Positions 11,267 through 31,540 of a stretch of DNA of 32,000 nucleotides are shown in pieces. The notes under the pieces are model-generated. The model searched no databases, was not told where the DNA came from, and was given only the letters and a program-made list of their open reading frames with translations. Where the stretch lies: NCBI RefSeq assembly GCF_900232105.1, contig NZ_LT934425.1:2280001-2312000 (forward strand), in the 5' to 3' direction. Made by a program: the position numbers and the translations under genes. Position 1 is the first letter of the stretch; the number at the start of each line of letters is the position of its first letter. Source of the DNA: Candidatus Kuenenia stuttgartensis. GTDB lineage: Bacteria; Planctomycetota; Brocadiia; Brocadiales; Brocadiaceae.

Positions 11267-11287
11267 GATTTATTCTTCACTTACAAC

Positions 11288-11430: not shown

Positions 11431-12435
11431 TCAATGCGAATATATTTTTTCCGCCAAAACGATGGATATGTCACGGTTTAATGACGTTCTTATCATTCTT
11501 GCCCTGAGGGTACAGACATTATCTTTCAGCGTAAAGTGGAATGGTATCATTCGCTTCTCCTTATAGTGCAGCGCTGTTTTCAATTCTACAAACAGGCTTG
11601 TCTCTCTGTAGCCTGCAACATGCCCCGTTTTATTTAACAACTCTATTGTCACGAGCACTTCCCGGTATCCGTAGTCACCCGTTGGTACACTATGCGGGAT
11701 GCCGGTATTGGTTATTTCAAGTGCGCCTTCAATAGCATCTTCTGTTTGAACTATTTTAGTAAAGCAAAGGGACAACATATGCTCGTCAACGGGAATTAAC
11801 TCCTGAAAAGAAAAAAGATGCTGCTTGCCTTCCCGCTTTGGATATATCTTTTGCCAGGGTTCATCCTGAATAAGTTTTCGGACTATTTCCGGCATATGGC
11901 AGTCCTGGCAGGTCTTTTTATCTTCGGCGTCTTTTATTTCTTTCCAGACGTTATACGTGCCGGCGTGGCATTTTCCGCAAAGTTCACTGCTCTTGTAAAA
12001 CATATTCATCCCGGTAACCGGATGTGGGGCGCGGGCAGGGGTTGGTCCGGCGAGTGTGCAGTCATTTAAATGGCAGGCATTGCAATTGACCCCCTCTTCA
12101 ACATGTATATTCCGAGGGACGATGCTTGCATCGGTAAAAATGGTTTCCGGTACGTGGCATCCAAGGCAAAAAGTGAATGAATAATCAAATGCTTGTTCCC
12201 TGAAGGCATTGCTGGTATAACTTCCGGCATGGGGAGAATCTTTCCATTCATGGTAAATATCAATATGGCAATCGCCGCATTTTCCCGCTTCAGGTGACTT
12301 CATGCCTGTTTCCACCAGCTCAGGGTAAATAATGCAGCCGCTGATAATGAAGGCCATCGGAAAGAAAAAGATAACTATGAAAAAGGGGAACAGACGTCTG
12401 CCCATTGATGCATTTTCAGGATTGCTTTGTATCAT
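11431..12435 (-). CDS. Pentaheme cytochrome c, probable lipoprotein
   Basis: Motifs are CGDCH, CLGCH, CNACH, CGKCH and CQDCH. A signal peptide with a lipobox-like IISGC follows MGRRLFPFFIVIFFFPMAF. The likely start is Met at 12435 (gagga upstream) or 12405. The ORF-track start at 12513 would overlap the upstream gene by about 100 nt. Confidence 0.8.
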   Translation of the reverse strand: MIQSNPENASMGRRLFPFFIVIFFFPMAFIISGCIIYPELVETGMKSPEAGKCGDCHIDIYHEWKDSPHAGSYTSNAFREQAFDYSFTFCLGCHVPETIFTDASIVPRNIHVEEGVNCNACHLNDCTLAGPTPARAPHPVTGMNMFYKSSELCGKCHAGTYNVWKEIKDAEDKKTCQDCHMPEIVRKLIQDEPWQKIYPKREGKQHLFSFQELIPVDEHMLSLCFTKIVQTEDAIEGALEITNTGIPHSVPTGDYGYREVLVTIELLNKTGHVAGYRETSLFVELKTALHYKEKRMIPFHFTLKDNVCTLRARMIRTSLNRDISIVLAEKIYSH

Positions 12436-12730
12436 GCCTTCGTTTTCCTCTGAAAATGAATGGAAGGAAGATAAAGAACAAGGCGCTTGCCACAAGAATA
12501 AAAATAAAGACAAATTCGTTGTGGATACATTTTTTGAGCAAATAGACGGGAATGAAAAACCACGGAATATGTTCCGGTTTGTTTACAGGGTTAAACGGGA
12601 GCGGGAAAAATAAAACGGCAAGGAGGTCAAGCACCACAAGAAAGCAACCAACGATAATGTACCGGAACATTTCGTTCGGGAAAAAGGGTTCCAGCATATC
12701 CGGACGTTTGTTTTTCGTGTAATCTTTCAT
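12416..12730 (-). CDS. Cytochrome b C-terminal-domain / b6f subunit IV-like membrane protein
   Basis: 104 aa with 3 hydrophobic helices. PFFPNEMFRYIIV and NKPEHIPWFFIPVYLLKK resemble the PF(Y/F)P...LR and P(E/P)HIKPEWYF(L)P signatures of the cytochrome b C-terminal domain/PetD. No cytochrome b N-terminal-domain gene is adjacent. Confidence 0.55.
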   Translation of the reverse strand: MKDYTKNKRPDMLEPFFPNEMFRYIIVGCFLVVLDLLAVLFFPLPFNPVNKPEHIPWFFIPVYLLKKCIHNEFVFIFILVASALFFIFLPFIFRGKRRHDTKQS

Positions 12731-12886
12731 AAGATATGAAGTGTGTATTCCTCTTCTAATGTCTCTTTAGTCAATACCTTTTTTCTTCGGAAAAGACGCA
12801 GATAGCCATTGCACAAGTCATTGCGTTGATGAATTGTAATTACTAAGCAAAACAATATATGCCAAGCATTTTTAATGCGAATGTTT

Positions 12887-13072
12887 GTAACACTTTAGTC
12901 TTTTGAAAATTGATACACATATTTTAGCTTAATATGGGTGGCACGGACAAGCAGTGCTTGTCCGTGGTCGTGTGCAAATGGGGCTACGTCTAATTTCCAC
13001 ACGGACAAACGGAGTTTGTCCGTGCCACCCAAAACTAAACTGCAACATATTTTCAAAAAGCTAAATTGTTAC
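12887..13072. mobile_element. MITE family 3, complete 186-bp copy with 8-bp target-site duplication
   Basis: Ends are gtaacactttagtcttttgaaaat / attttcaaaaagctaaattgttac. It is flanked by direct gaatgttt at 12879-12886 and 13073-13080. The core is a long palindrome gggtggcacggacaagc..gcttgtccgtg ... cacggacaaac..gtttgtccgtgccaccc. Confidence 0.8.
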
Positions 13073-13199
13073 GAATGTTTTGAGTTAAACAACCACATGG
13101 CAATGGTTAAAATAAAGAACGCAAACGATTTTGACAGAGATTTTTGCGCCTATGTGTAATATTTACAATGCCATGCCGGGTATAGTCAAAACATAGAGA

Positions 13200-13778
13200 C
13201 TATTTTGCGCTTATTTCCAAAGTGGTGGTGTAGACGTAATCATCCGTCTCACTGCCTTTACCATCAGCATCAACGCCTGCCGCGTAAAATGTTATTGGCT
13301 CCGTAGCGTCGGTAGGAGCCGTCCACTTCACCTTCCAGTTCTTTTTCTTTGTTCCCTTATACGTATGTTCTATATATTTATCCTTGTCAGCTTTATCAAG
13401 TCCCCGATAATCATCCGCAGGAATAACCTGTGTGGTATTCCCGATTTTTTTAAATTTTCCCACTCTGTTTCCGCTTGCATCAACCGCAGTCATTTCAAAC
13501 CCACGTTTTTTTCCACTGGAGTTGCTAAATGCTACCTTTAATTTGATAGTTTTTCCAGGGGTATACTCATAGGGACCGGAAATAGAAAATTCAGCATCCC
13601 CGGAATCGTTGGTGTATGTATCATGGCAACCACTTGCATTACAGGTGCCGGAATCATCAGGAGCTCCGGTACGGTAAGCATCAGGACCGCTTGCCGATGC
13701 AAATACTGCACTTGAAAACATACTGCATAACGATACACTCAACGCCAAACAAGAAAGAGAATTCTTTACTATTTTCAC
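13200..13778 (-). CDS. Exported beta-rich protein with N-terminal GAP...C-x3-G-C-H motif, function unknown
   Basis: The signal peptide MKIVKNSLSCLALSVSLCSMFSSAVFASA is followed by YRTGAPDDSGTCNASGCH. The rest alternates hydrophilic and hydrophobic residues in a beta-sandwich-like pattern. Confidence 0.6.
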   Translation of the reverse strand: MKIVKNSLSCLALSVSLCSMFSSAVFASASGPDAYRTGAPDDSGTCNASGCHDTYTNDSGDAEFSISGPYEYTPGKTIKLKVAFSNSSGKKRGFEMTAVDASGNRVGKFKKIGNTTQVIPADDYRGLDKADKDKYIEHTYKGTKKKNWKVKWTAPTDATEPITFYAAGVDADGKGSETDDYVYTTTLEISAK

Positions 13779-13819
13779 ATTACAACTCCTTACAATAAAT
13801 GTTTTTATTCATACAGATA

Positions 13820-14683
13820 CTATTTCTTTTTTAAGGTAATTTCCAATGGTGTTACATCTGTTTGATTCATTTGATAGGATTGATTGTAAGCATCGTAACC
13901 TTTCTTATACACTTTCATGGAATACGCACCTGCCTTCACTTTTTCAAGAATAAATTCACCGCCTTCGTCTGTTTTCGTTTGATATTTGATCTTACCATTT
14001 TTACTGAGGCGTACTTTAGCGCCGGCAACGGGTTCTCCGGCTACATCAATCGTATCCGATAAATACTCCCGGGCATTATATTCAACAATCCAATCCTTTA
14101 TTGTGTTATATTCACTATTGCTGTTGAGGTTCGGCCACATAGTACCCTCGCTGGAATTTTTATCAAGTTTTCTCAATAAGAGAGAATCCTCACTTCCCGG
14201 AGTAACCAATCTTGGATCCGTTACTTCAGCATATGTCGTCAAGGGTATGCTACTTTCAGAGCCACCCTCTTTGTGGCACGAAATACATTTGGCGTCGAGA
14301 ATCGACTTTACACTGCTCTCATAACTTATCTCCGAAGAATTACCTCCGTTATCATTACTGGTTACCATACCAGCAAGATCGAGGTCATTTGTATTTATAA
14401 ATACTCTGCCCTCTGCTTCGGTAGTATGACAACCATCCGCATTACAACCACCATTTTCTGCGCCGGTCGGCATCGATACCGTACGGCCACGATAAGATAC
14501 AGATATGGTAAACGGTGCTGTTAAATCCTTCTCTGAGTAAAAATTTCCTAACTGATCTGATCGCAAGCGTACTTTTTGGCCATTAGCGTCTGTTATTTTT
14601 ATTTTTGCACTCTTTCTCGCATTTGAACCTTCAGCATCATCATAAATCCCCCTTTCCGGAAAGATTTCAACAAAATCCTTATT
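13820..14683 (-). pseudogene. 5'-truncated gene: C-x4-CH + PSCyt1-like CxxCH domain + carboxypeptidase-regulatory-like domain protein
   Basis: The frame is open from 14683 with no ATG and no signal peptide for about 40 codons; the ORF track begins at a TTG. It contains GAENGGCNADGCH. SVKSILDAKCISCHKEGG matches the planctomycete cytochrome c (PSCyt1) pattern. The C-terminal VAGEPVAGAKVRLS...TDEGGEFILEKVKAGAYSMKVYKKGY matches the CarboxypepD_reg-like pattern. The open frame abuts the IS. Confidence 0.6.
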
Positions 14684-14686: not shown

Positions 14687-16655
14687 AGCGGGTTTCCACA
14701 AATTCAAAATAATATGTAGTCGCAGAATAAATGGCCTATTTATTAATACAAATCCTTTATAACCCTATAAATACTGACTTGACAAAATATTTTATTAATG
14801 ATAGTGTAGTCAAAGAATATTGGGACTACATTATGCACCTTACTTATAGCGATTCTAAATACAAAGGGAAAACCTATAAATCTTACTCTATTGCCGAATC
14901 CTACAGGGATGGCAAAAAGGTCAGAAAAAGAATACTTTGGCCCATCGGGAAACTTTCCGATATTCAAGCCGAGCAAATCAAACTGATATGTAAAACAGTT
15001 GAAAACACAGATCAATTGCAGACTCAGCTCAAAGACGTTGCAGTCCTGGAAAGCAGGGCATATCTCGATATAGCCGTTGTTAATGAGTTGTGGAACCAGT
15101 GGCAGCTTGATCAGGCTTTTGACTACGATGTCACTGCAGGCGCCCTTCCTACCAATATGATTGCAAAGATACTGACTATTAACAGGTGCACCGATCCGTG
15201 TTCTCATTATTCCATTCCTCATTGGGCGAAAAAGAGCGCGCTGGAGGACATTCTTAAAATTGATCTTTCAGGCCTAAATGACGATAAAATCTATTATGAA
15301 TTAGATAAAATACACAAAAACAAAATATCTATAGAGAACCACCTTTTTAACCAAACCTTCTGGAAACGTCCGGAATCCTATAAATTTATCAACTACGACC
15401 TAACTACTTCCTACTTTGTGGGATATAACTGTGATCTATCGGCATTTGGCAAGGGCAAAATAGAGTGTCATGGCAGGCGGCAGGTCTTACTGGGTGTTCT
15501 TATCAACTCTGAGGGATATCCTTTCAAATGGGATGTATTCCCCGGGAACACCGCTGAGGTAAAAACCCTCAAACAGAATATCAATGCCTGTAAAACCAGA
15601 TTCAAATTGACTGATAAAAACGTCACCCTTGTATTTGACAGAGGCATAATCTCTGAGGACAATGCCAATTTGATAGAAGAAGCCAAACTCAAATACATCT
15701 CGGCATTGGATAGAAATCAGATACCCTCTTGCGGTGTCAGTTTAAAGTCTCTTAATGGGTTATCCATAGAAGATAAGGACGCCTCCGATATACCTATCCC
15801 GCAAGGGTTTTTAAACTATGATGATGAATTATACTACCATGACAATGGCGTCATAGGAAACAAGCGTTTTATTACCGGTTTTAATCCCACTTTATTTATA
15901 GAAGACCGCAATAATAGAGACGAGAAAATAACCTTTTTTAAGGATTATCTCAAAGAAGAGAATAAAAACCTTAAAAATGCCCAAAGAGACCGGCAATATG
16001 ACGCAACAAAGAGCCGCATTGTAGATGAGCTGAAAAGGTTAAAGATTCATAAATATTTCGAAGACCCTGTTCTGACGTCCATCACCGTTACCCATAGACT
16101 GAAAAACGGGCAGGTCAAATCCGTCAAAAGTTTCAAAATAGAAATCAAGCTGTTAACTGATGTTATAGCCGCAGATAGATTGTTGGATGGCGTATGTGTT
16201 TTTATCACTAACCATACAGAACGGGAAGATGGAGGTGCGTTTAAAGCAAAACCCCAATCTATAGTTAGAGCCTATCGGGACAAGACAAAAATAGAAGATG
16301 TCTTTAAAAATGTAAAATCGTTCTTAAAAATCAGGCCCTTCTTTGTCAATACCGAGGCACATGTTAAAGCCGTCTATACTATCTGCATCCTGGCATATTT
16401 TATAAACCGTTATCTATCAAACCAACGAAAGGCAATAGGAGAAAAAGATTTTTTAAACTCAAAGGAACTCTATGCGCCGTTCAAAGATATAGATATCGCC
16501 ACTCTTGAGGCTAAAAATACCGGTGAAACCTTAAAGAAAGCCGTGAAACTTCCCGCCGTCACACAAATGCTATTGGAAAAACTTGGAATGTCCAATGTTG
16601 TTTTCGGCCAGTAATTAAAAGACTTCCAAAAGACATGTAGTCGCAGAATCAATGT
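14687..16655 (+). mobile_element. Insertion sequence, IS4 family (IS1634-like); boundaries approximate
   Basis: It has a single large DDE transposase ORF. The flanking host ORF fragments stop or open at 14684-14686 and 16656-16658. I could not identify terminal inverted repeats. Instead, a ~40-nt imperfect direct repeat (ttccacaaa..atgtagtcgcagaataaatg / ttccaaaag..atgtagtcgcagaatcaatg) sits on both sides of the transposase ORF. Confidence 0.6.
14731..16614 (+). CDS. DDE transposase, IS4 family (IS1634 group-like)
   Basis: 627 aa. It has VFDRGIISEDN (second catalytic D context) and a C-terminal YRDKTKIEDVFKNVK. The latter fits the IS4 Y-x2-(R/K)-x3-E-x6-K signature. The size is typical of IS1634-group transposases. 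Confidence 0.8.
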   Translation: MAYLLIQILYNPINTDLTKYFINDSVVKEYWDYIMHLTYSDSKYKGKTYKSYSIAESYRDGKKVRKRILWPIGKLSDIQAEQIKLICKTVENTDQLQTQLKDVAVLESRAYLDIAVVNELWNQWQLDQAFDYDVTAGALPTNMIAKILTINRCTDPCSHYSIPHWAKKSALEDILKIDLSGLNDDKIYYELDKIHKNKISIENHLFNQTFWKRPESYKFINYDLTTSYFVGYNCDLSAFGKGKIECHGRRQVLLGVLINSEGYPFKWDVFPGNTAEVKTLKQNINACKTRFKLTDKNVTLVFDRGIISEDNANLIEEAKLKYISALDRNQIPSCGVSLKSLNGLSIEDKDASDIPIPQGFLNYDDELYYHDNGVIGNKRFITGFNPTLFIEDRNNRDEKITFFKDYLKEENKNLKNAQRDRQYDATKSRIVDELKRLKIHKYFEDPVLTSITVTHRLKNGQVKSVKSFKIEIKLLTDVIAADRLLDGVCVFITNHTEREDGGAFKAKPQSIVRAYRDKTKIEDVFKNVKSFLKIRPFFVNTEAHVKAVYTICILAYFINRYLSNQRKAIGEKDFLNSKELYAPFKDIDIATLEAKNTGETLKKAVKLPAVTQMLLEKLGMSNVVFGQ

Positions 16656-17349: not shown

Positions 17350-17753
17350 AATATGAATTTTAAATTGTTAATTGGGTGGCACGGACAAACCTTGTTTGTC
17401 CGTGCCACCCTCTATCGATACTTAAATACTATATTAAATTTTTCTAAAAACAGATGCTTTTGACTATATCAGGAGGCTTACGTGTATTGATACCTGGATT
17501 GTATATTAAATTTTAGAAAAATAGATACTTTTGGCTATAAACAATTAGTAGAGACACGACATGTCGTGTCTCTACGTGACTCATGCTTCCCTGTCTGCGT
17601 ACGTTTCCGAAGGTAGCCAGACCGTCCCGGTCTGGGCGAGTCGCCTGTCTGCGTGCCGGGACGTATAGGCAAGGCCGCTTGTGTATTAAATATCACAAGC
17701 AGGATGCTTGTGTTACATTGTGCAGATAGTTACAAAAAATCGGGAATGCGCCC
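17350..17753. repeat. MITE family 1, copy lacking the left terminal repeat
   Basis: 17585-17753 is near-identical to the reverse complement of 26518-26686, including the right terminal repeat ttacaaaaaatcgggaatgcgccc. It contains the gggtggcacggacaaac..gtttgtccgtgccaccc hairpin (17374-17410), the GTAG hairpin 17548-17575, and an internal tandem duplication of the tattaaatttt..aaaaa.agat block. The left end is degenerate. Confidence 0.7.
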
Positions 17754-17776
17754 GGGAAATATGCTATAGTAGCCGC

Positions 17777-18280
17777 ATGAACGAAGAACATTCACCTATG
17801 AAATTGCTTATGAAAAGATTGCAGCATAATGAAAGTGAAGTGGTGCGCCAAGCCCTTGAAGAAATCGGCAGATCCGGAAAGGGGAATCGCGAGGCCATAA
17901 AAATGCTTCAGGATTTTTTAAAGGGAGAGCGGCGAATGCCTCTCCGCGTTTTGGCGGTTCAAACTATTGCGAAAATAAAGGAGTCCCCTCAATCTTCCAC
18001 AAAAGAATTCAAAAAACCGAACGTCTTTCAGTGTCCGGGGGCGGAGAAGATAAAAAGGGTTGAAATTTTGGAGGTAACGTGTCCCCACTGCCACCAGGAA
18101 GGTACGGCGTCGGTAGCCGGTTTTGAATATGAATTCGCATGCGAGAGCTGCGGGGGCATGATAAAGCGAGATATCCCTGAAAGCTGTATCGAGAAGTGTC
18201 CTATGGGAAGCGAGTGTGTTGGTGAAGGGCGTTATCAAAAATATTTACACGGCAGAAAAAAAGCTACTGGAGATACATAG
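17777..18280 (+). CDS. HEAT-repeat-like N-terminus + Cys-rich zinc-ribbon-like C-terminus protein, paralog A
   Basis: The probable start is MNEEHSPMKLL; the longer ORF-track start lies inside the MITE. VVRQALEEIGRSGKGNREAIKMLQDFLKGERRMPLRVLAVQTIAKI resembles PBS-lyase/HEAT-like repeats. The C-terminus has CPHC..CESC..CIEKC..C. It is about 95% identical to the 28830..29324 product. Confidence 0.6.
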   Translation: MNEEHSPMKLLMKRLQHNESEVVRQALEEIGRSGKGNREAIKMLQDFLKGERRMPLRVLAVQTIAKIKESPQSSTKEFKKPNVFQCPGAEKIKRVEILEVTCPHCHQEGTASVAGFEYEFACESCGGMIKRDIPESCIEKCPMGSECVGEGRYQKYLHGRKKATGDT

Positions 18281-18485: not shown

Positions 18486-18557
18486 TGGCAAAATGGAGTA
18501 GTGTATTTCTCTATACCTACCGTAGTCATTGGCTCGTGGGCGAGAAAGACAAGGGGC
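18486..18557. repeat. Duplicate of the 3' end of the MBL-fold hydrolase gene (att-like direct repeat, left copy)
   Basis: ggcaaaatggagtagtgtatttctctatacctaccgtagtcattggctcgtgggcgagaaagacaagggg differs from 30976-31047 at 4 positions by my count. On the minus strand it reads LVFLAHEPMTTVGIEKYTTPFCQ-stop. Confidence 0.8.
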
Positions 18558-18775
18558 TGCTGGGGTCATTTAGAGAAGCAAGGATGGTTTATATTGATTT
18601 ATGTTGCAGGTATAGGTTGTATCATAAAAGTTTAAGGGAAATTGGTCAGGAGCTGGGAGGTTTAACCGTTGGAGGGATGAGTCAGGTAAGAAAGAGATTA
18701 AAAGAAAAACTGCAGAAAGACGATACCTTAAGGTTCATGTATAACCGGTGCAATAAGGCGCTCTCCGACGAATAG
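18536..18775 (+). pseudogene. C-terminal DnaA-C-like HTH fragment of a transposase-associated protein
   Basis: ARMVYIDLCCRYRLYHKSLREIGQELGGLTVGGMSQVRKRLKEKLQKDD follows the Bac_DnaA_C pattern (..yL.r..t..sl.eIG..fGg..hs.V..a.k.....). As I recall, this domain occurs at the C-terminus of COG1943-type Y1 (REP-associated/IS200-like) transposase relatives. Only ~70 residues are present and no catalytic domain. Confidence 0.45.
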
Positions 18776-18906
18776 TTATTTATACAGGTAAAAGGATTTA
18801 CCTGAATATTAATCAATTTCAACATATCCTTGTAATTAAAACTGTTAAATGTATAATCGTTTCAGGAAAAAATACATTGTTGTCAATAGGTTAGGTTTGA
18901 CCCCAT
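18710..18906. repeat. Direct repeat, copy 1 (tail of HTH fragment plus downstream sequence ending in tttgaccccat)
   Basis: ctgcagaaagacgataccttaaggttcatgtataacc...caataggttaggtttgaccccat recurs at 19904-20090 with few substitutions and small indels. Confidence 0.85.
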
Positions 18907-19195
18907 GCCATACCCATGGGTAAATATTGGTGATAAGGCGGCCGTCTTTGAGGCCACCCACGGTACTGCCCCCAAATATGCGGGAAAAGATATGGTTAAT
19001 CTGGGTTCAGTTATTTTATCAGGGGTAATGATGTTTGAGCATCTGGGCTGGGATGAGGCAGCAAACATGATTGTGAAGGCATTGGGAAAGGCTATTCAAA
19101 AGAAGACAGTTACGTATGACCTTGAACGTCAGATGAAGGGCGCTAAATTAGTCAAGTGTTCCGAGTTTGCCGATGAAATAATTAAGAATATGTGA
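18905..19195 (+). pseudogene. icd: Isocitrate dehydrogenase (NADP) 3'-terminal fragment (icd')
   Basis: [90 protein letters not shown] aligns along its length with the last ~90 residues of bacterial Icd (E. coli ...[37 protein letters not shown]...[29 protein letters not shown]). The first ~320 residues are absent. Confidence 0.85.
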
Positions 19196-19903: not shown

Positions 19904-20090
19904 CTGCAGAAAGACGATACCTTAAGGTTCATGTATAACCAGTGCAGTAATGCGCTCTCCGACGAATAGTTATTTATACAGGTAAAAGGATTTACCTGAA
20001 TATTAATCAATTTCAACATATCCTTATAATTAAAACTGTAATCATTTTAGGGAAAAAACATTCTTGTCAATAGGTTAGGTTTGACCCCAT
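19904..20090. repeat. Direct repeat, copy 2
   Basis: It matches 18710-18906. Together the two copies bracket the icd'-antitoxin-toxin module. Confidence 0.85.
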
Positions 20091-20108
20091 TGACTCCCCT
20101 TGCCAATA

Positions 20109-20133
20109 GGTTAGGTTAGGTTAGGTTAGGTTT
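20109..20133. repeat. Pentanucleotide microsatellite (ggtta)x5
   Basis: aataggttaggttaggttaggttaggtttgacccc. The homologous sites at 18888 and 20072 carry only two units (aataggttaggtttgacccc). Confidence 0.9.
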
Positions 20134-20180
20134 GACCCCATTGACTTTGACTACACCCTAACTAAAAAAGGATTGATTCC

Positions 20181-21941
20181 ATGAAACAGCTTACCAAATT
20201 GTCAAATATTGATCAGTTCTTACCCAGATGGACGAAAAGAGTTATCGCAGAAACGGGTGGGCGAGACCCTCTTGGTTTATCAAGGGTTTCGGACATGATT
20301 GTCGAATTCCTTTTAACAGGTATTACTACTCAAACGAATAGAGCAAGATACTATTCATTTTACTGCTGGAATATCTGGAATATCTGGCATATTCATCTAA
20401 CGGAAAAGCCTCAGAAGTATAAAGATTTTGTTGACAGTTTTCGTAGAAGAGAGGCAGTACTTGCCATGTCCACATATGCCAACAATAGTAATACCTCACC
20501 TGTTGGCATTAAAGCCGCCCGTCCAATATTGGAGAAAGGATTCCAGAGAGGTGAGATGGACAGTAATTTTCGTGTTCTACCTTCGAATGCGCTGGGTGGC
20601 TATGGTCAGTATTACGGAGGAAGCCTGTATCAGCTTGGGTTGACGCGTCGCATTGAAAATGGAATTGACCATTTGAATAAAGGAATGGGAGAAGCATTGG
20701 CAGAAGCATTTCATTTATCTATTCATGAGACTCCTTACATCCAAAAGGAACTTTTTCGAAAAACAAAAATTCCACTTGTTGACTTTGATGGGTCTAAAAA
20801 ATTGCTGACTCTCGATGCCATCATGAAAAAATCTGGAGTCATAGAACGGAAACTTCTCATAGATCTGTTTTTCGGCTTCAATGGCACTACCATTTGTGAA
20901 AGCACCTTACTCAGAAGACACACCTTGGGTCAAATACTCCACATTCTGTGTGAATATGAAAGACATGATTTATATCTAAACCTAGATAGCATCGATGTCA
21001 TTTTTGTCTATGCGCCTTCTTACTTCGATGTCATTTGGTCTGAGGAGGATGATAAAACTATTCCATATAAATGTCCTGAAAAGTTTAGACGTTGTCACTC
21101 TCTTTGGAGGCAATTCTGTCTCCAACAATATTTTACAAATGCATTAGAAAACATACTATTTGCTGTTTTGGAAATAATAGGTAATGAATCAGCGGGTCTA
21201 ACTATAGAAAATATTGTTTTACGATTGATGGAGACCACATTTCTCAAAGTTTTACGAGAGAAAGCAGGAAAGGATTGCTATAGACCAAGAGAAATCCTTA
21301 AAGCTTTTAACATCGAAGACATTCCGACTCATGAAGCATCATACGATTTGCAACAATTGCTTATTCCAACTGCTAAAAATAGCGAATTTGATATCCTGAG
21401 GATATCTGAGGAAGACACAGGAAGTGTTACGGCTAAGGCAATGCTACTTTTAGCAGTTCTTTATGGAAAGTGGAGAGGAATTCAGGATGAAGAAGGCATG
21501 TGTTATGTACATGAACATGCTGGTAACGGCCTTTGGTTTTGGACGTTTATGCCAATCATTGATAAATGGCTGGACAAGAATACAAAGTGGGATGAAACAC
21601 TAGAAAGAATTATAAGATGTTTCATTGTTGATCAACATGATAGAATTATGTACGAGAAAAAGAGATTGGAAAGTTGCTGGTTCAGAACTGATGGAAATCG
21701 ACTATTTAAAGAACAGGAATACTCACCTAAATTTCGTGCTAATCGACATCTTCAAGCAGTTAATATTATGCGTGACTTATGTCTTATAGAATCTGACGAT
21801 GAAGGATACCTTTCGATTACCTCGAAAGGCAAAACAATTCTGAACAAAATACTGAACGAACATGAATGTGTAATAAGAAAGACAATCGATTCAATTTGCA
21901 TGAGATACTTGATAGTAGCTCCTATGATCATGCGCTCATAG
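20181..21941 (+). CDS. Cassette ORF1: 586-aa protein of unknown function with winged-helix-like C-terminus
   Basis: An AAGGA lies 8 nt upstream of the ATG. I found no nucleotide-binding or catalytic motif. The N-terminal block AETGGRDPLGLSRVSDMIVEFLLTGITTQTNRARYYSFYCW looks conserved but I cannot place it. The C-terminal IMRDLCLIESDDEGYLSITSKGKTIL has the usual wHTH wing pattern (gLie..d..y.lT.kG). Confidence 0.6.
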   Translation: MKQLTKLSNIDQFLPRWTKRVIAETGGRDPLGLSRVSDMIVEFLLTGITTQTNRARYYSFYCWNIWNIWHIHLTEKPQKYKDFVDSFRRREAVLAMSTYANNSNTSPVGIKAARPILEKGFQRGEMDSNFRVLPSNALGGYGQYYGGSLYQLGLTRRIENGIDHLNKGMGEALAEAFHLSIHETPYIQKELFRKTKIPLVDFDGSKKLLTLDAIMKKSGVIERKLLIDLFFGFNGTTICESTLLRRHTLGQILHILCEYERHDLYLNLDSIDVIFVYAPSYFDVIWSEEDDKTIPYKCPEKFRRCHSLWRQFCLQQYFTNALENILFAVLEIIGNESAGLTIENIVLRLMETTFLKVLREKAGKDCYRPREILKAFNIEDIPTHEASYDLQQLLIPTAKNSEFDILRISEEDTGSVTAKAMLLLAVLYGKWRGIQDEEGMCYVHEHAGNGLWFWTFMPIIDKWLDKNTKWDETLERIIRCFIVDQHDRIMYEKKRLESCWFRTDGNRLFKEQEYSPKFRANRHLQAVNIMRDLCLIESDDEGYLSITSKGKTILNKILNEHECVIRKTIDSICMRYLIVAPMIMRS

Positions 21942-23329
21942 CTACGTATACTTTTGACCCAGAGTTCTTTGAGGAGTACTGTCTTGAAAAACTTAAAAGT
22001 CTAAGTGGAAATGGTAATATTTCTGTTCTCGTAGATAGGGGTGAATACGAAAAAGTCATAAAAGGAACAGACTCATCAATGCCACAAAAGGCAAATCTTC
22101 GTTATCTCTTACATCCAGTTTACGTTCTAGGTGCATTTCATTCAAAAATATTTCTTTTTGTAAATCAAGACCATGGCTTGCTTGTAATCGGAAGTGCAAA
22201 TTTTACCCGTCCAGGCCTTGCATCAAATGCAGAGTTGGTGTCATGCTACGAATATGAAGTTGAGGAAAAGGAACAATTTAAGTATTTGTTTATGTCTGCA
22301 TTTCACTATTTCAGACAAATAAGTAACTATTCTCTAAGTCAAACACTCGAATCCAATATTCGGGTAGTAGAACGGGAAATTGCCTGGTTAACTGAAGGGT
22401 ATAACAATGAAATAAACGAATCAAATCCAGTACTACTACATAACATTGATACCCCACTATGGGAACAGCTAAAGGCGAAAATTGAACAACCCGTTGATTC
22501 TATTTCTGTGCTTTCCAGATATTTCGACCCAACACCTACCCTTCTTGATAGAGTGGATCGAGATTTTAAACCGAAAAAAATTAAAATCTTTACTCAAAAC
22601 GGAATCACCACATTGACCTCACAATGGTTGAAACATCCGCTAGTGAGGAAGAGTAAAGTTGAGATATATCTATGTACATATAAAGATGAAGAACATAGCC
22701 AACCCCTTCATGCAAAAGCTATTGCTATCGAGAAAGATAAAAATATCGTATTTGCTTTTGGTAGTGCCAATTTTACTACACCAGCGATGTTGCGTACCAT
22801 GAACGATGGTAATGCTGAGGTAATCTTGTGTTTCCATGGCTTAAGTAAATCGAGTATAAGCCCAGAAAGGTTTTTTGATCCAGACAATACTGCCATTCTG
22901 CTTAATCATGAAAAACAATTGAATTTTACGCAGGAGGAGGACAAAAAATCTCCATCCAATAGATATGATATATTACTTAAAGAAGCCTTGCTTGAGGGTG
23001 AACGGTTGTGCCTGATCGCTGATATTTCTGAAAAATTTAGACAATACCCTCTCATTGCTGAAATCAGTTCTCCAAACAAACCTACGCAACAAGTTAAGTT
23101 GCAGCAGTTAGATGAAGGATACTACGACGCAGACCTTTCAGATGAAATGCTGAAGAATTTTGGTGATCAATCATCCGTTGTTCAAATAAAAGCTTTGATG
23201 AACGATGAATTGATTGCACTAAGCAATCCTCTTCTATTAACCCAATCTACAAGATATTCAAACCGGTGGAAGTGTGCGTCGCGAGCGACAAATAAAGGAA
23301 GCAATGCAAAGCACAGACAAGTTCCATGA
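21866..23329 (+). CDS. Cassette ORF2: PLD-family phosphodiesterase/nuclease with two HxK...GSxN motifs
   Basis: Motif 1 is GAFHSKIFLFVNQDHGLLVIGSANFTRPGL. Motif 2 is PLHAKAIAIEKDKNIVFAFGSANFTTPAM. The N-terminal HALIATYTFDPEFFEEY is typical of the PLD-like nuclease fold. Its last ~30 codons (after 23240) appear to be out-of-frame read-through (see findings). The start overlaps ORF1 by 76 nt, or 46 nt if TTG at 21896 is used. Confidence 0.8.
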   Translation: MCNKKDNRFNLHEILDSSSYDHALIATYTFDPEFFEEYCLEKLKSLSGNGNISVLVDRGEYEKVIKGTDSSMPQKANLRYLLHPVYVLGAFHSKIFLFVNQDHGLLVIGSANFTRPGLASNAELVSCYEYEVEEKEQFKYLFMSAFHYFRQISNYSLSQTLESNIRVVEREIAWLTEGYNNEINESNPVLLHNIDTPLWEQLKAKIEQPVDSISVLSRYFDPTPTLLDRVDRDFKPKKIKIFTQNGITTLTSQWLKHPLVRKSKVEIYLCTYKDEEHSQPLHAKAIAIEKDKNIVFAFGSANFTTPAMLRTMNDGNAEVILCFHGLSKSSISPERFFDPDNTAILLNHEKQLNFTQEEDKKSPSNRYDILLKEALLEGERLCLIADISEKFRQYPLIAEISSPNKPTQQVKLQQLDEGYYDADLSDEMLKNFGDQSSVVQIKALMNDELIALSNPLLLTQSTRYSNRWKCASRATNKGSNAKHRQVP

Positions 23330-24911
23330 AGCGCTCAAGGAGATGAACCACTCTGGTGATTTAGATCGCCAGATACAGTTCCTGATCTATTGTGATATTC
23401 CAGTAATTGAAGCAGAACAACCATTTGCACGTAGGGCAAGACCACCTTTGGATCGGAACAAGGAAATGCGAAACATTGGAGAACGGAATCTCAAACACTT
23501 TGTAGACCTTCACGAAGCAACCATTGACTTCATAAATAGGCATTTTGGAAAGCTCAAAAAACATATAAAAAATGGAACTATAAAAGGCATACCAAACTTT
23601 ATGCATATCTTTCTTGCCATTTGTTGGATTCTTGAGAACCAGATTGAAAGGGTAATTCAGGGGTTTAAGTCAAAATTAACACCGATGACTTCAAAAGAGT
23701 GGTATGACTACCGTGAACAACTTGATGAATATTTTAAATACTTCAAGGAAGTTATGGATTGTCTTTGGGGTGATTATCTAACGACCATGCTTAAACATCA
23801 CACCCGCCGGGAAATCAGGGAAAAACTCGATCCTGATTTCCACTATTTGAAGGATGTCTGTTCGCAGATGTTGGGATTTAGGTCAAGAATTGAGGTCTTG
23901 CGAAAATCTCAATTAAAGGTCCAACGTGAAAGTGGCAGGGCTTTAGTCCTTCCAGAGTATTTTGAATCCATTCTCAAAGAGGAAAAATGGCACATTTATT
24001 GTGAACATATAAACTCGTCCATTGTTCAAATCAGAGCTTTAGTTGAAAATAACTCGATTGTACCTAAAAATCAGGTTCTATCAACCAATTTTCAAGAGAT
24101 TAAAACTGGTAGAAGTATAGGATGTGAATATCAAATAAAGGAGGCGCAGCAAAGTACATTGCAGTGCATAGAAGCAATCAAAGAATTATACAACTCCAGC
24201 AATTCCAAGGCACTGAAACAGTTCCTGACTTTCTGTGATATTCCAGTAATCAAAAATATACAACCAATATTAGCATACAGCCCAAGACCTTCTTCTGGGT
24301 TGAGCAAGGAAACATGGAGACTTGGAGAATGGAATCTTAGACACTTCATAAATCATCACAAAGCGACACTTCACTTTATAGACAAACATTTTAGAAAGTT
24401 AGAGATACATATTAAAGATATACCTAAAGAGAACATACCAAACTTTATGCATATCTTCCTTGCCATTGGTTGGATTTTGAGGAACCAAATCGAAATGGCA
24501 ATTCACTGCCTTAAGACAAAAATAACTCCCATGTCTTTAGAAGAATGGCAAGAATACCTTAAACAACTGGATATATATTTTAAAAAGTTTAGACTACTCA
24601 TGGATTGTCTTTGGTATAAATATCTTTCTATCATGTTAAAATATTATGCACATGAGACAATACGGGAAAGGTTCGAACCAGATTTCCAATTTCTAAAAGA
24701 CATTTGTTCGCATATGCTTGGATTTCGACCAAGAATTGATATTCTATGTAAGTCTCATTTAAAAATTCAGAGATCAGACGGAACAATAATACTTCCTGAA
24801 TATTTCTCTTCTGTTTTCAATGAAAAGGATTGGAAATACTACTCCAATAATATAAAAAAGATTCATCGCGCTATTTTTAAACACTTTTTCAAAAAGAAAC
24901 ACAAATTATGA
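23274..24911 (+). CDS. Cassette ORF3: tandem-duplicated ~282-residue helical domain protein, unknown function (probably the C-terminal part of ORF2)
   Basis: The two halves align residue for residue (QIKEAMQST../QIKEAQQST.., IPNFMHIFLAICWILENQIE/IPNFMHIFLAIGWILRNQIE, MDCLWGDYL/MDCLWYKYL, LGFRSRIEVL/LGFRPRIDIL, LPEYFES/LPEYFSS). The listed start is a GTG. The frame is open from 23241, and homology to repeat 2 begins upstream of that GTG. Confidence 0.7.
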   Translation: MRRERQIKEAMQSTDKFHEALKEMNHSGDLDRQIQFLIYCDIPVIEAEQPFARRARPPLDRNKEMRNIGERNLKHFVDLHEATIDFINRHFGKLKKHIKNGTIKGIPNFMHIFLAICWILENQIERVIQGFKSKLTPMTSKEWYDYREQLDEYFKYFKEVMDCLWGDYLTTMLKHHTRREIREKLDPDFHYLKDVCSQMLGFRSRIEVLRKSQLKVQRESGRALVLPEYFESILKEEKWHIYCEHINSSIVQIRALVENNSIVPKNQVLSTNFQEIKTGRSIGCEYQIKEAQQSTLQCIEAIKELYNSSNSKALKQFLTFCDIPVIKNIQPILAYSPRPSSGLSKETWRLGEWNLRHFINHHKATLHFIDKHFRKLEIHIKDIPKENIPNFMHIFLAIGWILRNQIEMAIHCLKTKITPMSLEEWQEYLKQLDIYFKKFRLLMDCLWYKYLSIMLKYYAHETIRERFEPDFQFLKDICSHMLGFRPRIDILCKSHLKIQRSDGTIILPEYFSSVFNEKDWKYYSNNIKKIHRAIFKHFFKKKHKL

Positions 24912-26095
24912 AAAGAGAAAAAAGGAAAGAAAAACTTAAGCACAAAAAAGACTTGGCTGCTAATAAAAAGTGGGAACAATTTGACAGAGTATTTGAAAGC
25001 ATAAGCATAAAAAAAGATTTTTCAAAGTTGCAAAGGAGCTTGAAGGAAAAAGTAATATCACGACGTTATCCATCTTTTCGTATAGAGTTATCTGATGAAT
25101 TAAAAAATGATTCCGAATCGATTTTGGTTGCGAAGGAAGTAGATGACTGTATTAAGCAATTAACTTTTGTACTAAAGCCCTTTAACACAACCATTAAAAT
25201 AAATGATTATTTCTCAGTTGCGGTTTCCGTTGCCCATTGTTTTAAAAATTGCGAAGAACTCTCATCCTTAGAAAATATAAAAACTGCTACGAGTTTGTTG
25301 TTGTCAGAGGAAAACATAGCTGCAGTAATAAAATGTTTGTATCAAAATATAGATGCAGTACTCATAGAACATAATAAAATGGACAGATTTTTTTTTTGGG
25401 CGTCTATAGAATGTAACACTTTACCAAACGGAAAGCCTATCAGGTTGATTCGAATACATAGACAACAGTGTATGTCTAAAAGTTTTTTTGTTGATGGACA
25501 GCAAAGAATTGCATATAAATGCGGTCAGTGTTTTATGCCTTATGGAATAAAATGGGCTGGCTTGGACAACAAAAATGTTGGGTTAACTGGCTTAGAAAAG
25601 AACATTCCTGTATACATTCAATCTCATGCGTTGGAAAGGTTATACGAAAGAATAGATTGTTTTGAAAACTCAAAAAGTCTTATTTACGATTATTTGTGGT
25701 GTTCCATCTTAAATGCAAAAGTTGTTAAAAGTACTAATGGAAAATATCTTATCGAATATTGGTTTAATTGTCACAAACTGGGTTATTTGGTAACAACGAT
25801 AAACGATGGAGTTGCTATAGTAAGAACATTTCTCTTTATCACAATGGATGGAACACCAGAAGGACTGTTATTGCACAAAAAACTCGGTATCAGAAGAGAT
25901 GATAAAGAATACTTACATCTCGACAAACTAAGAACCTACCTTATGACTGATATTCAAGAAGACACTGAATTACGTAATGTTTTTGAAGAATGTGGGTGTG
26001 GGCATTTATTTAAGGTTGTTAAGGAAGATGCGGTAATATGCCGAACGACTGGAGATGCTAAAGACATTCGTAAATACTTAAATCTAGGTAGTTGA
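24908..26095 (+). CDS. Cassette ORF4: 395-aa protein of unknown function, Lys-rich N-terminus
   Basis: The ATGA start/stop overlap with ORF3 indicates translational coupling. The N-terminus is MKREKRKEKLKHKKDLAANKK. The central/C-terminal segment PVYIQSHALERLYERID...NGKYLIEYWFNCHKLGYLVTTINDGVAIVRTFLFIT has an HAxxRxxxR-plus-beta-strand pattern reminiscent of DUF4258/BECR-fold toxins. That link is a weak inference. Confidence 0.6.
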   Translation: MKREKRKEKLKHKKDLAANKKWEQFDRVFESISIKKDFSKLQRSLKEKVISRRYPSFRIELSDELKNDSESILVAKEVDDCIKQLTFVLKPFNTTIKINDYFSVAVSVAHCFKNCEELSSLENIKTATSLLLSEENIAAVIKCLYQNIDAVLIEHNKMDRFFFWASIECNTLPNGKPIRLIRIHRQQCMSKSFFVDGQQRIAYKCGQCFMPYGIKWAGLDNKNVGLTGLEKNIPVYIQSHALERLYERIDCFENSKSLIYDYLWCSILNAKVVKSTNGKYLIEYWFNCHKLGYLVTTINDGVAIVRTFLFITMDGTPEGLLLHKKLGIRRDDKEYLHLDKLRTYLMTDIQEDTELRNVFEECGCGHLFKVVKEDAVICRTTGDAKDIRKYLNLGS

Positions 26096-26097
26096 AA

Positions 26098-26280
26098 ATG
26101 AAAAATCAAAAAAGCAACAAAAGATACAATGCGATACTGTTTGATATAGTTGGTACTTTGCTAACAAGACAGTCCGCAGATTTTCAAGTGTTCGCGGGGC
26201 GTTGTCAGGAAACCGGAATCACAATAGATTTAGATACTGCACGGAGAGGCTGGAAACAATCTGAGAGGTGGATTTTCTGA
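26098..26280 (+). pseudogene. HAD-superfamily hydrolase N-terminal fragment
   Basis: MKNQKSNKRYNAILFDIVGTLL resembles HAD motif I (hhhFDxDGTL), but the second Asp is replaced by Val. The ORF stops after 60 codons, whereas HAD enzymes are ~200+ aa. Downstream sequence to ~26450 has only short broken frames. Confidence 0.4.
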
Positions 26281-26517
26281 AGGAAATGGCTGGCGAACCC
26301 AGGATGCCTGACCACGAATTTTTCAGATGACCTGATTCCATTGCCTTGCGAACGGCGTTTGGCGAGAAGTCAGATGAAGAGATATGGAAAATGGTTTCTC
26401 TTATTCTCCCGCTTCAAGGCCCAAGACAGTCATGAGAAGTAATCGCTGGAAAATTTCACAAATCGCCCTAATTATTAAGTTGCGTTTAATGATGGTAGAG
26501 GATTAACATTTCGATTC

Positions 26518-26939
26518 GGGTGCATTCCCGATTTTTTGTAACTATCTGCACAATGTAACACAAGTATCCTGCATGTGATATTTAATACACAAGCTGCCTG
26601 CCTATACGTCCCGGCACGCAGACAGGCGACTCGCCCAGACCGGGACGGTCTGGCTACCTTCGGAAACGTACGCAGACAGGGAAGCATCGTAGAGACAGGT
26701 TTCAAACCTGTCTCTACAATGACCTATATTTTTATGCCCCACTAATTGTTTATAGCCAATAGTATCTATTTTTCTAAAATTTAATATATACTCCAGGTAT
26801 CAATAGATGGGTGGCACAGGCTTTTTGCCTGTGCGGAATACAGGCAGGATGCCTGTACCACCCTTGCAATAAATTCTATTATTCATCTTCCGAAAACCTT
26901 ATTTTTTGACTATATTTACAAAAAATCGGGAATGCACCC
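26518..26939. mobile_element. MITE family 1, complete 422-bp copy with 9-bp target-site duplication
   Basis: Ends are gggtgcattcccgattttttgtaa / ttacaaaaaatcgggaatgcaccc. It is flanked by direct tttcgattc at 26509-26517 and 26940-26948. The interior carries the GTAG hairpin gtagagacaggtttcaaacctgtctctac (26689-26717) and a gggtggcacagg..cctgtaccaccc palindrome. Confidence 0.85.
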
Positions 26940-28627: not shown

Positions 28628-28806
28628 CCCATAAGGTGTGGGTAAAATCCGTTAGACAGTAGGGTGGATCAAGCGACAGCGAATCAACCGTTTCATTTAT
28701 TATTGGTGGATTTGCTGTGAAAAAGCCCACCCTACACGAAATGAGAGAAAAGAGTCTTGGCGAGCATGGTATATTAACCCTGTCAGGGTTGTTTCTTTCA
28801 TTTTGT
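28628..28806. repeat. Composite palindromic repeat, family 2, copy B
   Basis: It is collinear with 2296-2512: cccataaggtg..gtagggtggatcaagcgacagcgaatcaacc..cccaccctac..ggtatattaaccctgtcagggttgttt. It lies directly upstream of paralog B. Confidence 0.8.
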
Positions 28807-28829
28807 GGGAAATATGCCATAGTAGCTGC

Positions 28830-29324
28830 ATGAACGAAGAACATTCACCTATGAAATTGCTTATGCAAAGATTGCAGCATAATGAAAGCGAAGTGGTGCG
28901 TCAAGCCCTTGAAGAAATTGGCAGATCCGGAAAGGGGAATCGCGAGGCCATAAAAATGCTTCAGGATTTTTTAAAGGGAGAGCGGCGAATGCCTCTCCGC
29001 GTTTTGGCGGTTCAAACTATTGCAAAAATAAAGGAGTCCCCTCAATCTTCCGCAAAAGAATTCAAGAAACCGAACGTCTTTCAGTGTCCGGGGGCGGAGA
29101 AGATAAAAAGGGTGGAAATTTTGGAGGTAACGTGTCCCTACTGCCATCAGAAAGGTACGGCGTCGGTGGCCGGTTTTGAATATGAATTCGAATGCGAGAG
29201 CTGCGGGGGAATGATACAGCGTGATATCCCTGAAAGCTGTATTGAGAAATGTCCCGTGGGAAGCGAGTGTGTCGGTGAAGGGCGTTATCAAAAATATTTA
29301 CAAGGCAGAAAGAAAGCTACTTGA
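28830..29324 (+). CDS. HEAT-repeat-like + zinc-ribbon-like protein, paralog B
   Basis: I count 8 substitutions over ~164 aligned residues against the 17777..18280 product. Nucleotide similarity runs from ~28806 to ~29350. Confidence 0.6.
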   Translation: MNEEHSPMKLLMQRLQHNESEVVRQALEEIGRSGKGNREAIKMLQDFLKGERRMPLRVLAVQTIAKIKESPQSSAKEFKKPNVFQCPGAEKIKRVEILEVTCPYCHQKGTASVAGFEYEFECESCGGMIQRDIPESCIEKCPVGSECVGEGRYQKYLQGRKKAT

Positions 29325-30975: not shown

Positions 30976-31540
30976 GGCAAAATGGATTTGTGTATTTCTC
31001 TATACCTACCGTAGTCATTGGCCCGTGGGCGGGAAAGACAAGGGTTTCGTCAGGCAGGGTGAAGATATGCTTGCGGATATGTTCTGTCTGGCATTGAGCG
31101 GCCTTTGAAGAATTCGTACCACCAACTGAACCGCAAAAAAGCGCATCTCCTGTAAACACACCACCGGGGATATAGTACGACATTCCATGAAGAGTATGGC
31201 CAGGCGTGGATAATGCTTTGAATTGCAGCGAACCAACCTCAATTATTTCGCTGCCCTGCAGCATGTTATTGGCAGAATGTACTTCTCCCTCTCCGGCATA
31301 ACTCTTAACAGGATAACGGCGGGAAAACTCCTGCATGCCTTCGGTATGGTCCCAATGTCCATGCGTAAAAAAGAGATATTGTAAGAGGATTTGCCGTTCC
31401 CGGATAAAAGCCTCTATTTCATCGCTGAAACCCCCGGGATCAATAAATACCCCTACCCTGGTTTCAGGGTCTGCAACAAGATACCCGTTAATCGGGTAAC
31501 TTCCCACGGTAAAACGCCTGAATATCAGATTGCAAATCAT
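30956..31540 (-). CDS. MBL-fold metallo-hydrolase (glyoxalase II-like)
   Basis: 194 aa. The HxHxDH motif appears as THGHWDH. Later His/Asp ligand regions are TPGHTLHG and GDALF. The end is PAHGPMTTVGIEKYTNPF. The last 6 codons plus the stop are encoded by the MITE-end-like sequence. Confidence 0.85.
   Translation of the reverse strand: MICNLIFRRFTVGSYPINGYLVADPETRVGVFIDPGGFSDEIEAFIRERQILLQYLFFTHGHWDHTEGMQEFSRRYPVKSYAGEGEVHSANNMLQGSEIIEVGSLQFKALSTPGHTLHGMSYYIPGGVFTGDALFCGSVGGTNSSKAAQCQTEHIRKHIFTLPDETLVFPAHGPMTTVGIEKYTNPFCRNTLVF
30976..31047. repeat. att-like direct repeat, right copy (inside the MBL gene 3' end)
   Basis: It matches 18486-18557 (see that feature). Confidence 0.8.

Follow-up and report, generated by a model that had tools for sequence, protein, structure and literature searches.

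A probably defensive PLD nuclease gene pair, related to Azaca but without a helicase, in a damaged three-gene cassette of Candidatus Kuenenia stuttgartensis

Introduction

To what kind of system does a phospholipase D (PLD) family nuclease belong when it is encoded among toxin and mobile-element genes, with neither a helicase nor a methyltransferase as its partner? The question is raised by a locus in a 32,000-nucleotide stretch of the Candidatus Kuenenia stuttgartensis genome (contig NZ_LT934425.1, positions 2,280,001 to 2,312,000; the whole of this stretch is referred to as the window). An earlier note on this DNA described four co-directional open reading frames (ORFs) of 586, 487, 545 and 395 amino acids (aa), here ORF1 to ORF4, which the ORF listing bears out, and proposed that they make up an undescribed four-gene defence or conflict system. 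All four have homologues and are therefore real coding sequence. The answer developed below, to which we give somewhat better than even credence, is that the locus is a three-gene cassette peculiar in its make-up to Kuenenia, that its core is a co-inherited module of two genes, A and B, and that this module is a helicase-less relative of Azaca (a system reportedly going back to Millman et al. in 2022), probably defensive and damaged in this strain. The proposal of a PLD nuclease-centred conflict system, without helicase or methyltransferase partner, in a neighbourhood of defence and mobile-element genes, is supported. The number of genes is not: there are three here, and two are conserved elsewhere.

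A co-inherited gene pair

Scanning a profile of the ORF1 alignment against one genome per species yielded 80 loci, in 66 of which an ORF1-like gene (gene A) is followed directly, on the same strand, by a PLD gene (gene B). An ORF1-family ORF was recovered in 73 loci, seven of them with the ORF1 relative only. The loci that have no adjacent pair are for the most part degraded remnants or lie at contig ends; at L009 a full-length ORF1 relative has no PLD gene downstream. Hosts of the pair are spread over more than 12 phyla, archaea included: Acidobacteriota, Myxococcota, Verrucomicrobiota, Chloroflexota, Desulfobacterota, Fibrobacterota and Spirochaetota are represented, as are alpha-, beta- and gammaproteobacteria, Elusimicrobia and a metagenome-assembled genome (MAG) of the Archaeoglobaceae. 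The PLD gene also matches 25 plasmids, haloarchaeal ones among them (six are conjugative and six mobilizable); eight of these match the ORF1 N-terminal region as well, and the A-B pair is present at all five of the plasmid loci that were opened. In a profile search of 1.84 billion representatives, the ORF1 family comprised 1736 clusters at 50% identity (E<=1e-3), or 1034 at E<=1e-10.

The pairs fall into a close clade, in which a protein of ~550 aa precedes a PLD protein of 726-737 aa that corresponds to ORF2 plus one copy of a repeat in ORF3, and a distant clade, in which a protein of ~550 aa precedes a PLD protein of 830-960 aa. Across 57 loci the pairwise identities of A and of B are correlated with r=0.95 (0.94-0.95 within each clade; permutation p=0.001), and the junctions between the two genes are often 4-nucleotide (nt) overlaps. 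Correlated divergence and overlapping junctions together argue that A and B are inherited as a unit. Clustering of the neighbours at the 66 loci found no third conserved gene beside the pair. A name for it was found neither in PADLOC 2.0, NCBIfam 2026 or the annotations of the NCBI prokaryotic pipeline (PGAP), nor, in a limited search, in the literature. In PGAP annotations gene A is a 'hypothetical protein' and gene B either that or a 'phospholipase D-like/family protein', and NCBIfam has no model for any protein of the cassette.

One nuclease gene in two pieces

On sequence comparison ORF2 and ORF3 are a single gene, gene B, split by a +1 frameshift. Dropping one C from a CCC run (Table 1) restores a protein of 1014 aa that is collinear with the intact PLD proteins of two sister contigs, L081 and L082 (1014 and 1031 aa). 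The extra C is present in the window and in two near-identical sequences (99.9%), L086 (an NCBI MAG) and L087 (a Logan contig), and it is absent from L081 and L082. Because it recurs in L086 and L087 and lies outside any long homopolymer, it is regarded as a genuine lesion of the strain and not as an error of assembly. Upstream of the GTG at which ORF3 was called, from 23244, the ORF3 frame reads NLQDIQTGGSVRRERQIKEA, which parallels the start of the second repeat within ORF3, NFQEIKTGRSIGCEYQIKEA; likewise, NPLLLT of ORF2 parallels NQVLST. Programmed +1 frameshifting at ACC-C-AAT was considered and rejected: tRNA-Thr re-pairs poorly on CCC, there is no slow codon, and the sister contigs are simply without the C. 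As called, the ORFs overlap as the earlier note had it (by 76 nt, by 56 nt and in an ATGA); for the second of these junctions it had offered '56 nt or a frameshift', and it is the frameshift that the intact L081 and L082 proteins bear out.

Gene A has suffered a change of its own: positions 21867-21869 read TGT in the window and TGA in L086 and L087, where the reference ORF1 is 562 aa long and meets ORF2 in an ATGA junction. The 76-nt overlap in the window results from this TGA-to-TGT change at the ancestral stop, and the last 24 codons of ORF1 are a read-through extension. With gene B split and the stop codon of ORF1 read through, the copy in this strain is probably impaired or decaying.

The cassette as a whole is 99.9% identical to the Kuenenia MAG, and database entries from Kuenenia match the products of ORF1 and ORF3 at 100% identity. 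In L081 and L082, upstream of the extent shared with the window, both contigs have sequence unlike it; homology with L082 stops ~90 nt beyond ORF4, and that with L081 at the contig's own end. The differing flanks of a shared cassette indicate that its three genes travel as one unit in the Kuenenia lineage. The cassette is also AT-richer than its surroundings, as had been claimed, but by less than the proposed 30% against 45% GC: its GC content is 36.1% (ORF4 32.9%), while the remainder of the window has 40.6% and the cytochrome genes have 43.1%.

The nuclease and its partner

The two HxK...GSxN motifs noted earlier in one chain are confirmed: PLDc_2 matches gene B twice above the gathering score (Pfam E 3.6e-18), and RE_NgoFVII and Tyr-DNA phosphodiesterase families are also matched. 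All ten motif residues are invariant in 28 homologues, 27 of which match the N-terminal PLD domain of RE_NgoFVII (Pfam). By both motifs and by its nuclease-type relatives, the product is a PLD-superfamily protein of nuclease type and a putative DNase. ORF3 had been seen as a duplicated helical domain and as a separate regulatory protein; the duplication stands (the copies recur with an 846-nt period at 71% nt and 52% aa identity), but the separate protein does not, this being the nuclease's own C-terminal domain. Its homologues are the C-terminal ~250 aa of PLD proteins of 721-737 aa (in a few cases 671-679 aa), apart from the split Kuenenia copy itself and a few shorter, apparently partial entries. 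ORF3 was also tried, and rejected, as a universal part of the system: its hidden Markov model (HMM) finds the close clade only, plus one partial match. Between the two clades, homology of the PLD proteins is confined to residues 5-478 (hhalign probability 100, E 5e-50), the C-terminal domains being different.

The gene A product carries an invariant N-terminal motif, GRDPLGLSR...RARYYSFY. Its predicted structure (predicted local distance difference test score, pLDDT, 84.9; predicted template modelling score, pTM, 0.84) is mostly helical and ends in a beta-beta-alpha-beta-beta-alpha element; a few relatives match HTH_45 and Mrr_N weakly in Pfam, consistent with a winged helix, and a C-terminal winged helix is probable. 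Foldseek of the model against the PDB gave no significant match (best E 0.28). Sequence-profile searches of the PDB with the ORF1, ORF4 and PLD alignments, and a search of PHROGs, gave none either; ORF1 has no match among deposited phage genomes and no relatives in IMG/VR, and its distant-clade relatives match no Pfam family. The earlier description of the nuclease's partner proteins as uncharacterised holds: neither Pfam nor NCBIfam has a family for them, and the PDB offers no significant match to their sequences or folds.

A relative of ZacA-ZacB without ZacC

Azaca consists of ZacA (DUF6361), ZacB (a PLD protein) and ZacC (a superfamily 2 helicase), and its cleavage of T4 DNA needs all three proteins as well as the Walker A motif of ZacC (bioRxiv 10.1101/2025.07.10.664194). 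Likeness to it was judged by matches among the 5027 PADLOC models. The best match of ORF2 is to ZacB (E 2.6e-19, 67 bits, partial coverage), with DrmC, PDC-M27B and PbeA next at 1e-8 or weaker; ORF1 matches ZacA at E 2e-5 and 22 bits, over residues 23-99 only. A close-clade locus, L002, does slightly better on both (ZacB 1.9e-20, ZacA 4.2e-6), with ZacB similarity that extends beyond the second HKD motif (protein 280-502 vs model 294-511). PLD proteins of the distant clade match ZacB as well (1.2e-9, 1.4e-16); their partners have no PADLOC match. In Pfam, eight of 24 ORF1 relatives match DUF6361 weakly (best E 1.6e-4); the ORF1 of the window does not at E<=1, nor do distant-clade members at E<=0.01. 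Set against the models of named multi-gene systems, the cassette proteins thus gave only sub-threshold ZacA and ZacB matches, and by sequence the gene B product would be a ZacB homologue and not a clear family member. 'Undescribed', the earlier note's word, is right in that no name was found for the pair, but weak, consistent matches to ZacA (DUF6361) and ZacB make it a relative of a known system.

The resemblance to Azaca lies in gene order (an uncharacterised protein and then a PLD nuclease), in a nuclease closest to ZacB, in the weakly ZacA/DUF6361-like N-terminal motif of the partner and in a common home in defence islands. In contrast, the cassette encodes neither a ZacC helicase nor any other nucleoside triphosphatase (NTPase), and the reported absence of a Walker A motif was confirmed in all its products; across the 66 loci, no helicase family recurs as a conserved neighbour of the pair. 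The partner is ~550 aa long, rather than ~400, and alignable over ~75 residues, and the nuclease bears an extra, variable C-terminal domain of 270-400 aa. On this comparison the locus would share ancestry with ZacA-ZacB, yet it fails the defining feature of Azaca, the ZacC helicase. Might it nevertheless be an ordinary Azaca system, its helicase encoded elsewhere or lost from the locus? The best PADLOC matches and the ZacA-ZacB gene order are what one would expect of it, but both scores fall far below full-length family level, ORF1 has only an N-terminal motif in common with the 396-position ZacA model, DUF6361 goes unmatched in the window and in the distant clade, and there is no helicase in the cassette and no conserved helicase family next to the pair at the 66 loci. 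We consider this very improbable.

Other PLD systems stand further off. DISARM/ARMADA-type arrays (SNF2 helicase, PglX/DrmMI methylase and YprA helicase) have in common with the pair the association of a PLD nuclease with methylase-based defence, and in at least five loci the pair follows a SNF2/RapA-like helicase and a DrmMI/PglX-like methylase. However, DrmC is a small PLD protein of ~250 aa to which similarity is limited to the HKD core (E 2.8e-8; 33.5 bits in NCBIfam against a cut-off of 133), the pair comes without DrmA/DrmB or YprA helicase, and most pairs, including that of the window, have no methylase nearby; a Pfam scan of the window's ORFs of at least 90 aa found no DrmA/DrmB-type helicase or methylase, and the locus is not DISARM. 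Nor is it a Pbe/Dnd-type system (the PLD-helicase fusion PbeA with PbeBCD): the match to PbeA has E 2.5e-7 or weaker and covers ~50 residues of the HKD motif and no helicase part. With NgoAVII/CglI, BfiI, Nuc and SauUSI the locus shares a PLD-family DNA nuclease as the catalytic domain. In NgoAVII/CglI and SauUSI, however, this is paired with a B3-like DNA-binding domain and an ATPase or helicase (the N-protein, the SauUSI helicase), and in BfiI and Nuc chains with one HKD motif dimerise, whereas here one chain holds two; the pair has no ATPase, and its partner protein is unrelated.

Genomic neighbourhoods and the case for defence

Counted by locus, the clusters beside the pair include HsdR in 9, HsdM in 9, HsdS in 6, PglX/DrmMI-like methylases in 9 and SNF2/RapA-like helicases in 7. 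A restriction-modification (R-M) or helicase cluster is near in 25 of the 66 loci, and a methyltransferase cluster in 18. Among 18 neighbours, picked as large, the PADLOC models matched were type I HsdR, DruE3 (Druantia), PglW, TmtA (Tiamat), GajB-like UvrD, DrmMI/type IIG, type IV mREase and DpdF/DinG. The order on the Myroides plasmid pFM-G13 is hsdM-hsdS-A-B-hsdR, and Pseudomonas loci repeat it with one extra gene between hsdS and A. The pair is inserted in type I R-M operons from unrelated phyla, with hsdS on one side and hsdR on the other (L090, the Myroides plasmid, 475-14246; L055 5626-17400). A comparable place is taken by PrrC-type genes in other operons of this type. At L053 an SNF2 helicase gene comes first, then a methylase gene and one of 416 aa, followed by A, B, a 402-aa gene and a gene for a GajB-like UvrD helicase; as an idea only, this resembles the layout of ARMADA II (bioRxiv 10.1101/2025.09.15.676423) with the A-B pair replacing the YprA helicase. 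Elsewhere the pair adjoins an integrase and an insertion sequence (IS; Haloferax) or a relaxase-related gene (Polaromonas). The neighbours claimed for the cassette in the window (GmrSD, Fic, PemK/MazF, DUF2779 and PIN genes) are all there, together with multihaem cytochromes and a DDE transposase.

These surroundings bear on three further explanations. That the cassette encodes a metabolic phospholipase, or an enzyme of the cardiolipin-synthase type, with accessory proteins, is hardly credible. It would account for PLD superfamily membership and for one JGI homologue auto-annotated as cardiolipin synthase-like, but the closest profiles are of nuclease type (RE_NgoFVII, Tyr-DNA phosphodiesterase, ZacB, DrmC), the neighbourhoods hold restriction and defence rather than lipid genes, and the distribution over phyla and plasmids is patchy. 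A role in the maintenance or DNA processing of mobile elements (plasmid or island competition, exclusion), instead of anti-phage immunity, would fit the 25 plasmids with a PLD gene and the five opened loci with the pair, the integrase, IS and relaxase-related neighbours, and the placing of the cassette in a mosaic, repeat-bounded island. Most identifiable chromosomal neighbours are, however, dedicated anti-phage or restriction systems, and anti-plasmid and anti-phage functions are compatible with each other; as an alternative to immunity we rate this improbable.

The more serious competitor, though still an unlikely one, is a toxin-regulator (abortive-infection) module in which A restrains the PLD nuclease until infection releases it to degrade host and phage DNA. 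Tight translational coupling of the two genes is as expected for such a module, as are the 48 of 66 loci without a methyltransferase and the toxin-antitoxin pairs that surround the locus in the window; it would also be expected, if the nuclease is costly, that the nuclease gene is the one inactivated here, gene A having changed its stop codon only and carrying no frameshift. But A is far larger than typical antitoxins and as conserved as B, and in 18 of 66 loci the pair lies co-directionally beside methyltransferase-based systems, a better fit to direct restriction.

The preferred reading, a helicase-less, probably defensive relative of ZacA-ZacB that is damaged in this strain, has its own points to answer. 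The defence role is argued from guilt by association and weak homology. The similarity of ORF1 to ZacA covers only ~75 N-terminal residues and lies below family thresholds. Moreover, ZacB is inactive without ZacC, so that the analogy with ZacAB does not predict an active pair lacking a helicase, and mutations of conserved ZacA residues are without effect in vitro (bioRxiv 10.1101/2025.07.10.664194). Neighbours picked by size overstate enrichment, which is no more than indicated, and shared organismal phylogeny could lie behind part of the correlation between A and B. As for the damage, ORF2 retains the two HKD motifs, and a GTG with GGTGGA close by could serve as the start of ORF3; from this arrangement, the split gene B might work as two polypeptides with residual function.

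A possible mode of action

A and B would form a complex in which B cuts DNA. PLD nucleases such as Nuc and BfiI cleave by way of a phosphohistidine intermediate and need neither metal nor ATP, and B would use the same covalent mechanism without metal or nucleoside triphosphate. Recognition or licensing of the target might be supplied by A, with its helical body and C-terminal winged helix, and by the swappable C-terminal domain of B. The pair, an evolutionary relative of ZacA-ZacB, would work with no ZacC-type helicase. At 25 of the 66 loci, about a third, where it is co-directional with operons of type I R-M, or of a SNF2 helicase and a PglX/DrmMI-like methylase, it may act as an added restriction arm; standing alone, as in the window, it may be a nuclease that depends on modification or is gated by some other sensor. 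The Kuenenia lineage has duplicated the C-terminal domain of B and added the orphan ORF4; in this strain the +1 frameshift separates a nuclease part of B from a C-terminal part, and the stop codon of ORF1 is lost.

A stronger version of this, which we put forward tentatively and think rather less probable than not, is that the pair represents a distinct and widespread defence family (at least 1000 clusters in bacteria, archaea and plasmids): a PLD nuclease free of helicase and NTPase, under the control of a partner whose fold is unrepresented. As a portable restriction arm it would act by itself or be fitted into type I R-M and SNF2/PglX-type methylation modules. In Kuenenia, a duplicated, sensor-like domain and a third protein, again of unrepresented fold, would be added to it.

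ORF4 and other features of the cassette

ORF4 (gene C) has 87 homologues of ~400-430 aa, an orphan family marked by the motifs VYIQSHALxRLxER and RTFLFxTxxGTPEG; Pfam found nothing recurrent in 31 members. The earlier note's view of it as a conserved partner fails: an HMM at E<=10 found it at none of the 80 loci with ORF1 relatives, and no A-B pair lies near ORF4 homologues at the eight loci examined. It was rejected on these counts as a conserved third component. Elsewhere its homologues stand alone in unrelated contexts, and only on contigs of the Kuenenia lineage is ORF4 joined to the pair. Many homologues are on contigs of ~1.5 kb, which had suggested an IS transposase; this too was rejected, ORF4 being single-copy here, alone in unrelated contexts elsewhere, without a DDE match and moving with the cassette. 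ORF4 has no match among deposited phage genomes; there are five relatives in IMG/VR, four of them on contigs of 185-388 kb. The protein is confidently folded in prediction (pTM 0.85) and has no significant PDB match. A weak sub-domain match to YoeB (6l8e_E; E 1.1, TM 0.50 on the target, 91 columns), a beta-alpha-alpha-beta4 element at residues 233-310 and the 'SHALERLxER' motif suggest, as a lead and not a result, a RelE/YoeB-like core.

The annotations of publicly available assemblies from this strain show ORF4 as broken, owing to single-base deletions at A6-7 and T10 homopolymers (Table 1). Most likely these are assembly errors; they could be phase variation. An ORF of 62 codons at 26092-26280, which begins 4 nt ahead of the ORF4 stop, is similar to the N-terminal end of a hydrolase of the haloacid dehalogenase (HAD) type (AILFDIVGTL). 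It seems truncated, and L081 also has an ORF start at the same place.

Two short repeats accompany gene A. Within it, at 20366-20392, an in-frame 9-nt tandem repeat, three units of CTGGAATAT, encodes WNI repeats, and L081 and L082 have one unit fewer. Upstream of it lies a perfect pentanucleotide repeat (Table 1), of which assembly L088 has one TAGGT unit fewer; a related single-unit copy of the motif that surrounds this repeat (CAATAGGTTAGGTTTGACCCCATTGAC) is found at 20066-20094. The TAGGT repeat may be a length-variable promoter spacer, that is, a contingency locus, for the cassette.

Table 1. Features of the cassette (window coordinates unless a contig is named)
Feature	Position	Strand	Basis or remark
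Cassette	20158..26189	+	extent common to contigs L081 and L082 at ~94% nt identity
(TAGGT)x5.2 pentanucleotide repeat, perfect	20107..20132	+	49-74 nt upstream of ORF1 ATG
Gene A (ORF1), 586 aa	20181..21941	+	ORF listing; ~550 aa typical of family
Ancestral stop of gene A	21867..21869	+	TGT here, TGA in L086/L087
ORF2 as called, 487 aa	21866..23329	+	ORF listing; out of frame after 23242
Gene B, N-terminal part	21866..23242	+	single-chain two-HKD PLD and ZacB-like middle region
HKD motif 1	22139..22201	+	H92-x-K94...G109-S-x-N112
HKD motif 2	22709..22771	+	H282-x-K284...G299-S-x-N302
CCC run with one extra C (+1 frameshift in gene B)	23241..23243	+	comparison with sister contigs
ORF3 as called, 545 aa, GTG start	23274..24911	+	ORF listing
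Gene B C-terminal helical domain, copy 1	23244..24089	+	first half of ORF3; once in 726-737-aa homologues
Gene B C-terminal helical domain, copy 2	24090..24911	+	tandem duplicate; Kuenenia-lineage cassettes only
Gene C (ORF4), 395 aa	24908..26095	+	ATGA overlap with gene B
ORF4 homopolymer deletions	L086 14738, 14763, 14827; L087 5313 = window 24918, 24944, 25009, 25388		

The surrounding island

The DNA around the cassette bears several marks of rearrangement. At 18905-19195 the last 96 codons of an isocitrate/isopropylmalate dehydrogenase gene (Pfam Iso_dh E 7e-24) stand as an orphan 3' fragment. A direct duplication of ~190 nt (18710-18906 and 19904-20090; 97% identity), which takes in the 3' end of a small sigma-r4-like ORF, brackets this fragment together with a DUF2281/PemK pair; duplication and fragment resemble the scar that an icd-targeting integrative element would leave. 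Longer repeats frame the island (17485-17754 vs 26517-26805; 17754-18053 vs 28807-29106; 18487-18555 vs 30976-31044). They include inverted arms of ~270 nt, up to 100% complementary over 89 nt and 8.9 kb apart, and two 97%-identical copies of an ORF for a HEAT-like/zinc-ribbon protein of ~175-190 aa (17708-18280 and 28803-29324, 11 kb apart), and they could enable inversion or deletion of the whole segment. The DDE transposase gene, at 14731-16614, is absent from the otherwise near-identical L086, and the CarboxypepD_reg-domain gene that flanks it encodes 379 aa in L086 as against 248 aa in the window; on sequence comparison, the difference is an IS insertion polymorphism between strains.

Significance

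The copy in this genome is damaged, which makes this particular locus less valuable; it is the intact versions (those of L081 and L082, and the pairs of 550 + 730 aa) that are worth testing. Interest is limited to some extent by the number of candidate PLD defence modules already at hand. Gene A and ORF4, with confident predicted folds that are unlike solved structures, are reasonable structural targets. An active pair would mean that a ZacB-like nuclease can be licensed in the absence of the helicase on which Azaca strictly depends. This would suggest a different way of recognising its target, and a compact two-gene module would be at work beside, and in some loci inside, the methyltransferase-based systems of distant phyla.

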